Part shown: piece by piece, positions 31,183 to 37,335 of the stretch
Numbering within the stretch: position 1 is the first letter of the stretch
Layout: every line of letters starts with the position of its first letter
Source of the DNA: Minisyncoccota bacterium
GTDB lineage: Bacteria; Patescibacteriota; Minisyncoccia; Phycocordibacterales; UBA12079
Length of the DNA: 64,000 nucleotides
Direction: 5' to 3'
Assembly (NCBI GenBank): GCA_028689435.1
Contig: JAQTWD010000001.1
Location: 96-64,095 of the forward strand
Position numbers and translations under genes: made by a program
The notes under the pieces: generated by a model
The model's input: the letters and a program-made list of their open reading frames with translations, nothing else
Database searches by the model: none
What the model was told of the DNA's origin: nothing

Positions 31183-31474
31183 CCAATATATATGAATAAC
31201 AAGAAATTGTTTTTAAAATAAGAATCGTGTCCTTTGAAATTCCTAATAAGAAATATCTCGATGCATTAGTACTCCTCGGCTGAACACATTACTGTGCTTA
31301 CACCTAGAGCCTATCACCTGATCATCTCTCAGGGATCTTAAACGATTCCTAATCTTGAAGTTGGCTTCCCTCTTAGATGCTTTCAGAGGTTATCCATTCC
31401 CAACATAGCTACCCAGCGGTGCTCCTGGCGGAACAGCTGGTACACCAGAGGTTAGTTCACTCCGGTCCTCTCGT

Positions 31475-32333
31475 CGTGTTTAAAAAATTTCATTCTTTTC
31501 GAAATTCGAAACTATGAATTCAAAATTTTTTATCTTCCCCTATTTCTAGGAGCACAGACTATATCTTCACCCTTTCCTCATGAACAGGACTGGGGTGGTG
31601 GCGTGTTACATACAGAGACTGTCATTTTCACCGAAATGATTCAGCACATCCATACGTCTGTCATAAAAATGGTTTTATTTTTATAGACAAGTCGTTACGG
31701 GGTCAAACCCAAAATTCTATACAAATCTTTTTTATTTAAAGTACTTCGACTGGCATAATTTTCTTTTTTGATTATTAATACCAAATCAACTATTCTGCGT
31801 ATTTGTTGTTTAGATAAATTGTTTATATTAACAGAGCTTAAAATTTCACAAGCTTCTATAAGAGCTTTAGTCTGTTTAGACTTGAACTTTATAAAAGGTT
31901 GTAATAATAAAAGAATTTCTTTTATTGTTTTAAATCCATTAATACGCAATTCGGACATTCCATCGTTTCTACGAGAAATGTATCCCACTCCAAACACTTT
32001 ACGCATCCACAAAAGTGGTTTTTCATGACGAGTATCTTGATACAGACAAATTGTTGCCATAAATCTTACGCCCTTTTTTGTATCAGAACGTTTTTTGATT
32101 TGTAACATCAAACTGCCATCACCATCAAGAAAACCCGCGATGTACGCTAAATTATTTGTATTGATTTTGAATCGACTTCCCACGGTATTGCCTTAAAGAG
32201 GATTATGGTCCTCAAGCATATTATACCACACAAGAACCGAGAGTGTGTATAATACTCAAACCACAACCATATGAAGGTTTCACCGTTATAGCCACTTTGT
32301 CATCACACATCTCTGTGTGAAGTAGCAAAATTT
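31475..32333 (-). mobile_element. group-I intron in the sarcin-ricin loop (between E. coli positions ~2656 and 2657) with a LAGLIDADG ORF
   Basis: Exon junction CCTAGT|...|ACGAGAGGACCGG. The 5' exon ends in U and the intron ends in G. J8/7-like GAAGATATAGTCTG is present. Confidence 0.75.
31695..32183 (-). CDS. LAGLIDADG homing endonuclease (single-motif type)
   Basis: 162 aa. LAYIAGFLDGDGSLML. GTG start inside the conserved 17-mer CAATACCGTGGGAAGTC. Confidence 0.8.
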   Translation of the reverse strand: MGSRFKINTNNLAYIAGFLDGDGSLMLQIKKRSDTKKGVRFMATICLYQDTRHEKPLLWMRKVFGVGYISRRNDGMSELRINGFKTIKEILLLLQPFIKFKSKQTKALIEACEILSSVNINNLSKQQIRRIVDLVLIIKKENYASRSTLNKKDLYRILGLTP

Positions 32334-32489
32334 ACTAGGAGCAAATCTTCTCAAGAATCAACGCCTGCAGCAGATAGGAGACCAACCTGTCTCACGACGG
32401 TCTGAACCCAGCTCGCGTAACTTTTTAATTGGCGAACAGCCAAACCCTTGGGACCTTCTCCAGCCCCAGGATAAGTTGAGCCGACATCG

Positions 32490-33341
32490 CAATGTCGTCT
32501 TTGAACCGCGAGATTCAAAGTTTTAATCCATTGTTACCAATGGTTTGGACTATATATTCACCTTTTTTTTAAAAAAGTTAAGGTGTTGGCGTTTTAGCAC
32601 TTCGTATTTGAAGCACTCTGTCCGTCAACCGACGGACAAGTCTCTACGGGGTCATAACTCAATTTGTATTTCATTGAAGGAATAATGTGTGGTTCAATAA
32701 TAGAATTCAATTTTTCAATACTTTCTTTCAAAAATCTAATCCTATAATATTTTTTATCTTTATTTAAACGAGCCTTTAAGCCCATTTTTCTCAAAGAATG
32801 CAATAATATTTTTTGTTCCTTCATAGAAAATTGTTGTGTGTTTAAATACACATCATTTTTTCTAGATTTACTTCCATCATCCATAAACCAAACCGCTAAA
32901 ATAATTGAATCTAATTCCAAATTATTTGGTATGGTTTTACTTTTATTTTTGTAAAAGTTTTTCATTAAATCAGTTATTTCTGGATGTTGTTTTGTAAAAA
33001 ATCTATAAGCTTTTCTGTCATTTTCTCCACTACTTCCTTTTGGAGGAGAAACACAAATATTTTTTAATATAGAATATTTCCAATCAACATATTCTTTGGC
33101 TTTGATAGAATGATTTATTTCTAAAAATGCATCTTTCCTGTTAGGTGCAATCCTAACATATCCATCACCAAGAATAGATCCCATTATTACTGATTTTTGT
33201 TGTTGAGTTAGACTTCCCACGGTATTGTCCATAATCATTACATTATAGCTGATTATATTATGGAGTCCACCGTTATAAGCCAATATTTTTTGTAGGATAT
33301 TTCTATCCTAGGCACCCCGATGTAAGTTGTAACTTAAGTTA
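32490..33341 (-). mobile_element. group-I intron at 23S position ~2500 (peptidyl-transferase centre) with a LAGLIDADG ORF
   Basis: Exon junction GGCACCT|...|CGATGTCGGCTC. The 5' exon ends in U and the intron ends in G. J8/7-like GAATATATAGTCC is present. Confidence 0.8.
32594..33283 (-). CDS. LAGLIDADG homing endonuclease (double-motif type)
   Basis: 229 aa in the track. Motifs IMGSILGDGY and AVWFMDDGS. The true start may be the GTG at 33220, inside the same 17-mer seen in the other intron. Confidence 0.8.
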   Translation of the reverse strand: MAYNGGLHNIISYNVMIMDNTVGSLTQQQKSVIMGSILGDGYVRIAPNRKDAFLEINHSIKAKEYVDWKYSILKNICVSPPKGSSGENDRKAYRFFTKQHPEITDLMKNFYKNKSKTIPNNLELDSIILAVWFMDDGSKSRKNDVYLNTQQFSMKEQKILLHSLRKMGLKARLNKDKKYYRIRFLKESIEKLNSIIEPHIIPSMKYKLSYDPVETCPSVDGQSASNTKC

Positions 33342-33911
33342 AGGTGCCGAACATCGCCGTCGATATGAACTCTTAGGCGATACCAGCCTGTTATCCCCAG
33401 GGTAGCTTTTATCCGTTAATCTTCACCCGCGTCTAATGCGAGGTGTCGGTTCACTATGCTCTGCTTTCGCACTTGTTCGGCATGCACGCCTCACAATCAA
33501 GCCAGCTTGTGCCATTACACTATCAGCACGGTTTCCATTCGCGCTTAGCTGACCTTAATAGGCTCCTCCGTTACTTTTTAGGAGGATAGCGCCCCACTAA
33601 AACTACCTGCCAGATACTGTCTCCCGCCGTTTTTTCCGTCGAGATTAGAATGTACATTTTTAAAGAGTGGTATTTCACTGATGACTCCAGACAATCCAAA
33701 AACTGCCCTTCAAAGTCTCCCACCTATGCTACGCATCAAAAACATACACCCAATACCAAGCTATAGTAAAGCTCCTGGGGTCTTTTCGTCTAGCTGCAGG
33801 TAACCGGCATCTTCACCGGTATTGTATTTTCACCGAGCTGTTCCCCGAGACAGTATCCCACTCATTACGCCATTCGTGCACGTCTACAATTACTAGACAA
33901 GGAATTTCGCT

Positions 33912-34290
33912 TGATTTTGTTACTATCCAATTTAAAACTGGATGAATGAATCATTTCTGTTCATTTCTACATATCGCTATGCAGTCCGGACTATAATTTC
34001 TAAGTTTAAAACTTAGTCTAGCGTTTAGTCTCTGAGGATTCTTGCGTATTTTGCAAGTCTTTCCTGCTGATTTTCCGCACTGATCAGATTTTTACTTTTT
34101 AGAAAAGTACTGTCAGATTCTCGGATTTTCCAGCATATGGCTAGATGTTTTATGACGTTTTATAAAATAAATTTTATAAAACAGGCAACATTTATTCCTT
34201 AAATTACTTTGTACACCAATTTTTTATCTTGTTTATCTTAGTATCCACAACAGTCCTAGTCTTTGTACCTCCTTATAAAAAAGAGGCACA
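33912..34290 (-). mobile_element. ORF-less group-I-like intron at 23S position ~1931
   Basis: Exon junction CCTAAGGT|...|AGCGAAATTCC. J8/7-P7-like GAAATTATAGTCCGGAC is present. The last intron base reads A, not the expected G. Confidence 0.6.
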
Positions 34291-35483: not shown

Positions 35484-36100
35484 CCTAACCTTCGGTACCA
35501 TACTTAGCCCCGATTATTTGCGGCGCAATATCTCTTGATGAGTGAGCTGTTACGCTATCTTTAAAGGATGGCTGCTTCTAAGCCAACCTCCTCATTGTCT
35601 GAGAAATTTCACCTCCTTAAGTGCACTTAGTATGAATTTTGGGACCTTAGATGTAGGTCTGGGCTGTTTCCCTTTTGACCAATGGAGCTTAGCCCCCACA
35701 GTCTAACTGCCTAGAAATTGACTACTGGTATTCGGAGTTTGATAGGATTGACGAAGTTTCCCCCTATTCAATCCTTCCAGTGCTCTACCCCCAGTAGGTA
35801 ATCTAGACGCTAACCCTAAAGCTATTTCGGAGAGAACCAGCTATTACCAAGTTCGATTAGCTTTTCACTACTTGCCACAAGTCATCCGATAGAGTTGAAC
35901 GACTAACCGGTTCGGGCCTCCTTCCGTCTTTCGACGAAATTCACCCTGCTCATGGCAAGCTCACTTGGCTTCGGGTCCTAAACATACAACACAATTTTTT
36001 CGCGCTATTCACACTCGCTTTCGCTGTGCCTCCTTGCTAACGCAATTAGGCTGCTGCATATTTAGACTCGTTGGCTCATTCTTCAATAGGCACGCGGTCA

Positions 36101-36248
36101 CCGTCGCATCTTGCTATGCAAGATGCGACGAAATTAAAAATTTTAAATTATAAATTTGACCAAACAAAAAATAAATTTTTTGTTTTAATTTATAATTTAA
36201 AATTTATCATTTATAATTCCGTCGTTCTTACGCAGTAAGATACGACGG
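36101..36248. repeat. multi-hairpin palindromic insertion in 23S
   Basis: CCGTCGCATCTTGC-TATG-CAAGATGCGACG + an AT-rich palindrome + CGTCGTTCTTACGCAGTAAGATACGACGG. Confidence 0.65.
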
Positions 36249-36555
36249 CTCCCACTCCTTGTAGGCATATGGTTTCAGGTCTATTTCACTCCCCTCTCCG
36301 GGGTTCTTTTCACCTTTCCCTCACGGTACTTGTTCACTATCGATCTCTAAAAGTATTTAGCCTTACCGGTTAGTTCCGGCAGATTCCCCCAAGCCATTCG
36401 TGTCTTGAGGTACTCAGGAACAACAATAAAAAAGATAAATTGTTTTCGTTTACGGGACTATTACCCTCTAGGGTCCTGCTTCCCAGCAGATTCAACTAAC
36501 AAAATATTTTTTGACTTTTTTCATTACAAGAATGACACTGTTGTCCTACAACCCC

Positions 36556-36702
36556 AGTCGCTCCTCGCTATGCTCGGAGCAAGTAGTAAGTAATAAGGTA
36601 TAAATAATAAGTAAAAAATTTGCTTCGCAAATTTTTTCGTTTCTTACTACTTATACCTTACTCCTTAGCACTTGCGTTCCGAACGCAGTGAGGAACGACT
36701 GG
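36556..36702. repeat. AGTAAGTA-type palindromic insertion in 23S (near-duplicate of 34345..34485)
   Basis: CAGTCGCTCCTCGCTATGCTCGGAGCAAGTAGTAAGTAATAAGG...CTTAGCACTTGCGTTCCGAACGCAGTGAGGAACGACTGG. Confidence 0.7.
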
Positions 36703-37335
36703 TTTGGGCTCTTTCGCTTTCGCTCGCCACTACTTACGAAATATTATCTAAATAAATAGACATTGTTTTCTTTTCCTCTGGGTACTGAGATGTTTCACTT
36801 CCCCAGGTGCACTCCGAGTATCCTTTATAGATACAAGGTAATCTGTGTTCAACAGATTGGGTTCCCCCATTCGGAAATCTCCGGATCACAGGTTGCTAGT
36901 CACCTACCCGAAGCTTATCGCAGACATGCCACGTCCTTCATCGCCTTTTAGAGTCAAGGCATCCACCATACGCCCTTATGAATTTCCTATTAGGAAATTC
37001 AAACAACGCAATTCTTATTTTAATACAATTTTTTTACCTACAGATCTAAAAATTTAATTTTTAATTAAACTTAAAGACCCATTGATTGACTTGTCTCTGG
37101 TATAAGACAAATCACTTGTTATTCATTTTTCAACGAACATTTCATTCAGCCATTTAATCTTACAGTCTCGGCGAAGTTTTGGATAAATCCAAAACTTCGC
37201 TGAAACAATAAATTTAAAAAAAATAAAACCGCTCTTTTTGTTTTAAGCGGTATCTACCCAAGATAGCATCTAAAAGACGCCTACATCACCCGCTTATTTA
37301 AATTAGTTTTAGCTACTCTATTTAGCACGGTTACT

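Follow-up and report, generated by a model that had tools for sequence, protein, structure and literature searches.

The window analysed here, a 64,000-nucleotide (nt) stretch of contig JAQTWD010000001.1 (assembly GCA_028689435.1) from a Minisyncoccota bacterium, carries on its minus strand a 23S ribosomal RNA (rRNA) gene that is interrupted by three large introns and five palindromic hairpins. The Rfam large-subunit (LSU) model LSU_rRNA_bacteria gives a single match in the window, at 36989..33291 on the minus strand (1803.7 bits), and BLASTN together with a MAFFT E-INS-i alignment to Escherichia coli K-12 rrlB carries the gene on to ~31245. That Rfam stops at 33291 is an artefact caused by two large introns further downstream. 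Positions in the rRNA follow rrlB (L002:642-3545; abbreviated Ec), and this numbering was verified by two landmarks, the sarcin-ricin loop at 2654 and GAAAGACCC at 2057. The genomic gene is 5745 nt long; once the introns (2090 nt) and the hairpins (782 nt) are subtracted, ~2873 nt remain, a normal 23S length. An earlier reading of the DNA by a model (hereafter the original prediction) had described a gene of twice the normal length that becomes normal after removal of its insertions, and this stands, with the two lengths corrected from 5765 and 2893 nt. The coordinates it gave for the three introns are identical in the rrlB alignment, while those of the five hairpin insertions agree give or take a few bases (Table 1).

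The relatives used for comparison are 80 loci of GTDB species representatives, fetched by their FtsW protein and cited below by L numbers; 20 full-length 23S genes were compared. The gene order 23S, tRNA-like gene, 5S, 252-aa protein, FtsW is conserved. The nearest relative, L009 (CP011215.1), is the complete genome of Ca. Campbellbacteria GW2011_OD1_34_28; its FtsW is 97% identical to that of the window, and for most of the 23S exon blocks the identity is 97-99%. Because the gene is the only LSU match in the window and its exon blocks resemble so closely those of a complete genome, it is judged to be functional. The relatives found through FtsW and the homologues of the 162-aa intron-encoded endonuclease place the host in the Candidate Phyla Radiation (CPR), as the original prediction had supposed, and make it a Paceibacteria/Campbellbacteria-like member. 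Taken as a whole, the account that a single functional 23S gene has been colonised by two kinds of selfish element is a likely one.

Table 1. Features of the 23S rRNA gene and related repeat copies in the window. Ec, E. coli rrlB position; MFE, minimum free energy; ORF, open reading frame.
Feature	Position	Strand	Basis or score
23S rRNA gene	31245..36989	minus	Rfam LSU match and E-INS-i alignment covering Ec 1-2904
L1931 intron, assigned to group I, 379 nt, without ORF	34290..33912	minus	after Ec U1931; Rfam Intron_gpI
L2500 intron, assigned to group I, 852 nt, with homing-endonuclease gene	33341..32490	minus	after Ec U2500; homology to L007 intron
L2656 intron, assigned to group I, IA-like, 859 nt, with homing-endonuclease gene	32333..31475	minus	after Ec U2656
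229-aa ORF, double-motif LAGLIDADG_2, I-SceI-like	32594..33283	minus	PF03161 E 5.8e-42; PDB I-SceI E 5e-15
162-aa ORF, single-motif LAGLIDADG_1, I-CreI/I-MsoI-like, in loop L6	31695..32183	minus	PF00961 E 2e-11
Family-A hairpin, replaces H15 tip	36556..36702	minus	MFE -77.3 kcal/mol, z -14.9
Family-B palindromic insertion in H25, after Ec 547	36101..36248	minus	z -11.5
Family-A hairpin, replaces H45, Ec 1159-1169	35353..35483	minus	MFE -73.6 kcal/mol, z -12.6
Family-B hairpin, replaces H63 tip, Ec ~1708-1770	34601..34815	minus	MFE -87.8 kcal/mol, z -15.0
Family-A hairpin at H68 tip, Ec ~1863-1879	34345..34485	minus	z -8.7
Family-A copy in 16S rRNA gene, h40 tip	13830..13971	minus	nhmmer E 2.7e-37; z -7.5
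Family-A copy, intergenic, just upstream of ftsE-like ABC ATPase gene (5905..5225)	5931..6042	minus	nhmmer E 1.1e-27

Three large introns and their endonuclease genes

The three large blocks, each named after the Ec residue that precedes it, are classed on homology and predicted structure as group I introns, the class that the original prediction had given them. For L1931 the assignment comes from Rfam: scanned alone, it matches RF00028 (Intron_gpI) over the full model (1-253) with 50.4 bits for a gathering score of 50 (E 4.5e-12). Its homologue in L009 shares 83% column identity and reaches 62.9 bits. Exon U1931 is present, but no P1 register could be settled from the sequence.

L2500 is assigned by homology with an intron of L007 at the corresponding site, which measures 359 nt, lacks an ORF and scores 66.3 bits in Rfam; the two align in successive blocks, and their peripheral hairpins covary. 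The alignment yields the core helices P3 (UUGGC/GCCAA), P4 (ACGGUG/UACCGU) and P6 (AAGUC/GACUU). The intron follows exon U2500 and its last base is G. P1 is formed by GGCACCU/GGGGUGCC with a U2500.G pair, and P10 by the pairing of ACAUCG with the 3' exon CGAUGU, both being kept in L007 and L038.

L2656 is inserted inside the sarcin-ricin loop, between AGU and ACGAGAGGACC. Its P1 pairs UAGU, the end of the 5' exon, with GCUA and contains a U2656.G pair that is kept in relatives, while no clear P10 pairing was found in the intron/exon sequence. Exon U2656 and a terminal G occur in all five distinct full-length copies (six listed, with L004 identical to L015 and L007 to L052), and also in further 3' halves. 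The 3' halves of nine relatives support a core made of P7 (CAGAC/GUCUG), P7.1, P7.2, P8 and a GNRA-capped P9, with GAAGAUAUAGUC as J8/7. In these helices 96.1% of the alignment cells are paired, as compared to 39-53% in slid controls, and 18 pairs are compensated as compared to 1-7, none of 500 shuffles being as good. The P7.1/P7.2 extension, described for L2593 and Twort introns (PMC1995217), is read here as a subgroup-IA trait, and it plausibly explains the weak Rfam score of L2656. More generally, the relatives' introns at 2262, 2500, 2593 and 2656 all follow an exon U and all end in G.

Two of the introns carry an endonuclease ORF, in both cases located between the P6 strands, and the 3' end of the 229-aa ORF extends into the L2500 intron core. 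The 162-aa ORF matches PDB I-MsoI and I-CreI with E-values of 1e-13 to 1e-19; it is 100% identical to an NCBI protein of a 'Candidatus Pacebacteria bacterium' and has 2343 homologues, mostly metagenomic, whose few named sources are Pacebacteria or Patescibacteria. Cleavage of an intron-less site has been demonstrated for another CPR enzyme, I-ShaI (PMC11270868), and the 162-aa and 229-aa enzymes are likewise predicted to cleave their target sites.

L2500 and L2656 share the core segment CAAUACCGUGGGAAGUC (32188-32204 and 33211-33227) as well as GACCCCGUA(G/A)(A/C)GACUUGUC, which adjoins the ORF ends (31691-31711 and 32637-32657). These common segments indicate that the two are related ribozymes, despite their different endonuclease families. 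To note, in the P9 region of L2656 (31536-31560) the 5' strand, GCUCCUAG, duplicates the end of the 5' exon, GCUCCUAGU (32334-32342), so that the P9 3' strand (UAGGGG) could also pair with the exon; this repeat is kept in most relatives.

Five hairpins and two palindrome families

The five hairpins are AT-rich and form duplexes of 40-90 bp with folding energies of -58 to -88 kcal/mol. Their z-scores, calculated against dinucleotide shuffles, range from -8.7 to -15, and none of 200 shuffles was as stable. They measure 131-215 nt, as compared to 16-23 nt for native tips in L009. The H63 hairpin has arms made of (AAUUUUU)n, whereas the H25 element assembles two GC-rich flank hairpins and a central AU hairpin. 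The H15 site falls near Ec 274-289, ~H16-H18 in E. coli numbering; H15 itself is a helix absent from E. coli. An Rfam scan also returned microRNA-precursor matches at the hairpins, which reflect only their long perfect stems.

The original prediction had attributed the hairpins to repeat families, and two of them could be delineated. Family A, with the core ..AAGUAGUAAGAAACGAAAAAAUUUGCGAAGCAAAUUUUUUACUUAUUAC.., has five copies in the window (nhmmer E 1e-27 to 4e-41), at H15, H45, H68, 16S h40 and in the spacer upstream of ftsE; four of the five full copies thus lie inside rRNA genes. The H15 and H68 copies are 94% identical across 139 nt, and the core of the H45 copy is 89-97% identical to both. 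The 16S copy, found in the context ACUGCCUAG .. CUGGGAGGAAGGUGGGGAUGACG, is present too in the relative L092. Family B groups the H25 and H63 elements. The termini CCGTCGCATCT of the H25 element are common to that of H63, and the terminal sequence CCGUCGCAUCU gives five matches where 0.18 are expected.

At H68, L009 has the copy as well, at 89% identity, and so do the metagenome contigs L089-L091. When the 21-nt core of family A was matched exactly against 241 million metagenome records, only four contigs were retrieved, all of them close relatives with either the H68 or the 16S copy and none with a new context, which indicates that family A is lineage-restricted. Copying from H68 to H15 is suggested by the 94% identity of the two window copies and by the nearest relative, in which H68 holds its family-A copy and H15 another palindrome. 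Hairpins have been gained, lost or swapped among genomes whose rRNA exons are 97-99% identical. The spread may have proceeded by template switching at cruciforms or palindromes, or through a putative hairpin-targeting transposase; a search of the rRNA neighbourhood found no cognate transposase.

Palindromic elements of ~100-150 nt, AT-rich, hairpin-forming and multi-copy, are known elsewhere: they include the Rickettsia palindromic elements, miniature inverted-repeat transposable elements (MITEs) and the organellar palindromic or double-hairpin elements of mitochondrial rRNA. Such elements, which reside in RNA genes and spacers, survive only in places where they can be looped out of the gene product. 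Families A and B resemble MITEs in having several dispersed copies of the same sequence. A MITE assignment was nevertheless rejected: unlike MITEs and other palindromic elements, the window copies replace the native tips instead of simply inserting, and no target-site duplications flank them. No report specific to palindromic repeats in the rRNA of CPR bacteria emerged from literature searches. A tentative reading is that the hairpins form an active, lineage-restricted family of AT-rich palindromes preferring the surface-helix tips of both rRNAs, and not a set of inert relics. If so, the classic intervening sequences (IVSs) of bacterial rRNA could be understood as multi-copy mobile palindromes that enter the hairpin tips of structured RNAs.

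Turnover among relatives and predicted fate of the insertions

In the 20 relatives the 23S genes extend over ~3.3-6.6 kb. Introns occupy sites 1917, 1931, 1951, 2262, 2500, 2593 and 2656, with up to five in one gene in addition to hairpins (five in L038, four in L008), and non-intron insertions are found near Ec 147, 230, 270-304, 545-555, 1160-1185, 1710-1770 and 1863-1882. L013 (CAZAKQ010000012.1) is a case in which three same-strand tRNA genes (Thr-TGT, Gln-CTG and Asn-GTT; L013:4009-4277) lie exactly at the helix-45 site; its rRNA must consequently be made in two pieces, with the tRNAs freed from the spacer. In many loci (L011, L022, L027, L028, L031, L048, L054, L066, L067, L069, L072, L078, L080 and others) the 23S match begins or ends at an intron site (Ec 2500/2501, 2593/2594 or 2656/2657), and in some, such as L027 and L048, this break coincides with a contig end. 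This suggests that assemblers break at polymorphic introns and that CPR 23S genes are under-recovered.

L009 has no insertion at Ec 2500 or 2656. The gap in its sequence corresponds to the limits of the L2500 intron to the base, the flanking exon blocks being 98% and 82% identical, while around L2656 the alignment is too poor for an exact gap to be read. Conversely, L009 possesses a 447-nt intron at L2593 that is absent from the window. Such intron-plus and intron-minus alleles form the pattern expected of homing elements. The hairpins differ as well: L009 has a 23-nt native hairpin at H45 and a 16-nt native tip at H63, and at H25 it has both GC-rich flank hairpins in common with the window but not the central 62 nt. 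At the H15 site, occupied in L015 and L020 by a short native hairpin, it carries an unrelated palindrome.

These data are consistent with the following sequence of events. The precursor would be transcribed from 36989 downwards, and the three introns, which occupy the conserved and functionally central positions L1931, L2500 and L2656, are predicted to self-splice with a guanosine cofactor. The LAGLIDADG enzymes of L2500 and L2656 would cut intron-less alleles, into which double-strand-break repair would copy the intron; homing would thereby account for a near-identical relative devoid of both. The ORF-less L1931 intron may be an older, vertically inherited copy. The hairpins would most likely act as IVSs, cut out by RNase III without religation, and the resulting 23S rRNA would consist of up to six held-together pieces of ~287, 307, 617, 537, 115 and 1010 nt. 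IVSs are recognised by their location in helix 9, 25 or 45, by an extended stem-loop that replaces a small capped helix, by a sporadic distribution and by RNase III excision without religation (PMC4990558). The H25 and H45 hairpins display the first three of these features.

Several results weigh against this account. On the intron side, Intron_gpI gives no match, even at E <= 10, when the whole window, 7 kb or 2.9 kb are scanned; L2500 has no direct match when scanned alone, L2656 has a weak, sub-threshold one (27.8 bits, E 6e-5), and L1931 ends in AAAAUCA before exon AGCG (window 33912-33915, minus strand), its last base being A and not G. The lack of matches in the long scans is a filter loss, not an absence, given that the introns scanned singly yield a full match for L1931, the weak one for L2656 and nothing for L2500. 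These scores, and the many CPR insertions that Rfam cannot classify (PMC11270868), would suit a view of L2500 and L2656 as ORF-bearing intervening sequences or members of another intron class, removed by host enzymes. This is very improbable: the exon U and the terminal G never vary, the U.G pair of P1 can be formed, L2500 has a P10 guide sequence and an Rfam-positive homologue, and the L2656 core covaries and includes the IA-typical P7.1/P7.2. Moreover, both blocks lie in invariant rRNA cores, where cleavage without ligation would be lethal. The terminal A of L1931 should impair exon ligation. The L009 homologue ends in AAUUUG, and L079 also keeps the terminal G, which is missing in four of the 11 L1931 introns listed (10 distinct), namely those of the window, L045, L053 and L008. 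The P7 region is unchanged. Boundary shifts that would restore a terminal G, by 1-2 nt or to L1926 or L1933, were rejected, as the ligated exon would lose or alter the invariant GGUAGCG. The introns without terminal G may hence be ligation-defective or retained; in Simkania, the L1931 intron is left unspliced.

On the hairpin side, H15, H63 and H68 are not classic IVS locations, and their hairpins may be retained as expansion segments, while each flank hairpin of the 16S and H25 copies still pairs with itself, which hints at a folded three-way junction and not one long RNase III duplex. Retention of all five hairpins in the mature ribosome, as bacterial expansion segments on H15, H25, H45, H63 and H68, would agree with their position at helix tips, where they extend the native helix coaxially; these helices bear ES5, ES7, ES15 and ES27 in eukaryotes. 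The nested flank hairpins of the 16S copy have diverged yet remain self-complementary, suggesting selection on the folded RNA, and three of the sites are foreign to classic IVSs (PMC4990558). Retention is nonetheless rather unlikely, as the arms are low-complexity AU repeats forming near-perfect duplexes of 40-90 bp, an ideal substrate for RNase III, and the gene for this enzyme, rnc, is kept in CPR bacteria (PMC12641178). In all bacteria studied, hairpins at H25 and H45 are excised (PMC4990558), and a conserved ribosomal role is implausible for hairpins that differ wholly among rRNAs of 97-99% identity. Nor do the hairpins behave as ordinary lineage-specific helices, vertically inherited throughout the clade, the possibility against which the original prediction had asked that they be checked. 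Extra sequence at ~Ec 270-304 does exist in all 20 relatives, because most bacteria have H15 and E. coli does not, so that some excess over E. coli is found in every relative at H15; at H25, H45, H63 and H68, however, the insertions are sporadic, which refutes this view for these four. With L009 devoid of the H45 and H63 hairpins and of the H25 centre and bearing an unrelated H15 palindrome, and with the same 90-139-nt sequence recurring at five unrelated places, one of them in the 16S gene and another between genes, it is hardly credible. Equally far-fetched is an origin in metagenome assembly, through fold-back chimeras or collapsed repeats, even though the H15, H45 and H63 copies are found only in this contig among the fetched sequences and many relatives have contigs interrupted within 23S. 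The junctions are clean, in that each hairpin takes the place of a helix tip and the base pairs of the flanking helix stay intact; the H68 copy recurs in an independent complete genome and three metagenome contigs, the 16S copy in a fourth, and analogous insertions occupy the same helices in relatives.

Neighbourhood and known systems

The rRNA genes of the window are unlinked: 23S, the tRNA-like gene and 5S (30626-36989) form one unit, and 16S with tRNA-Ile (12064-15061) another; the second lies ~15.5 kb downstream in the same orientation, and protein genes separate the two. The tRNA-like gene (31102-31182, minus strand), which lies between 23S and 5S, combines an acceptor stem of 8 bp with an anticodon arm that is irregular; its 4-base anticodon is read as 'gagt' by ARAGORN, and the Rfam tRNA score is only 43.7 bits. 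The gene is conserved in L009 and L090, where the anticodon is called 'aagt'. On either side of the 5S gene stand the arms of a 27-nt inverted repeat (30610-30636/30724-30750), 93% complementary and presumably forming the 5S processing stem. Near-perfect intergenic palindromes with 30-46-nt arms and a CG centre (..ATGCG/CGCAT.. or ..GACG/CGTC..) are found at 1302-1377, 7566-7659, 38726-38787, 54113-54174 and 55916-55983; they probably act as bidirectional terminators or represent a further class of small repeats.

The practical consequence for annotation is that such genes are routinely mis-called: the Rfam 23S end falls ~2 kb short, and the introns are missed in scans of normal size. Together with the contig breaks at intron sites, these mis-calls distort rRNA-based surveys of CPR bacteria. 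The window and CP011215.1 constitute a near-isogenic pair that differs by two endonuclease introns, one alternative intron (L2593) and several hairpins; it illustrates a fast turnover of elements and supplies natural empty sites for homing tests. For ribozyme biochemistry, the intron inside the sarcin-ricin loop and the L1931 introns that lack a terminal G provide useful test material, while the repeat-family hairpins offer a concrete handle on the old question of IVS origin.

Insertion sequences in the rRNA of CPR/Patescibacteria were reportedly described by Brown et al. in 2015. A doubled 23S gene holding introns and insertions is a documented habit of these bacteria, and the general picture is already published. 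In a survey of 348 CPR 23S genes, Tsurumaki et al. 2024 (PMC11270868) found insertions of 100 bp or more in 82%; a single gene may hold as many as 16 of them, their total length reaches 5,750 bp, and multiple insertions are the norm. The density of eight interruptions in one gene and their mixed nature, which the original prediction had held to be outstanding, are therefore not so, in view of these numbers and of the relatives described above. In that survey, only 45% of the 23S insertions are classed by Rfam as group I introns; clusters of LAGLIDADG_1 ORFs are found at 1917, 1931, 1952, 2593, 2604 and 2657; sites 23IS9, 10, 11, 13 and 14 are intron sites not reported in other bacteria, and 2657 is the last of the positions assigned to 23IS12-14 (PMC11270868). 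The surveyed genes resemble that of the window in the concentration of group I introns in the 3' half of 23S, in their LAGLIDADG_1 and LAGLIDADG_2 ORFs, in the short non-intron insertions at classic IVS sites, and in the use of sites 1931 and 2657. What goes beyond the published picture is the repeat-family relationship of hairpins across helices, both rRNA genes and a spacer (a term search of the main text of PMC11270868 returns neither "repeat" nor "palindrome"), the near-isogenic comparison with CP011215.1, which that study does not include, and the loss of the terminal G in L1931.

The LSU group I introns with LAGLIDADG genes at L1917, L1931, L1951 and L2593 of Thermotoga, Simkania, Coxiella and Synechococcus (PMC1995217) share the L1931 site with the window, as well as single-motif I-CreI-like endonucleases, ORFs that run from a peripheral loop as far as the ribozyme core and, for some of them, P7.1/P7.2. 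L2500 and L2656 have no occurrence in that 2007 paper, and the window L1931 differs from its introns by having neither an ORF nor a terminal G.

The hairpins find their closest counterparts in the IVSs of Salmonella, Yersinia, Campylobacter, Leptospira and Coxiella (PMC4990558, PMC2801512), with which they have in common the location in helix 25 or 45, inverted-repeat termini, a high AT content and a distribution that is sporadic by strain. By comparison with these IVSs, whose excision is here a prediction for the window, five hairpins are gathered in one gene, three of them at the non-classic H15, H63 and H68, with one more in 16S, and the core sequence is repeated at several helices and in a spacer.

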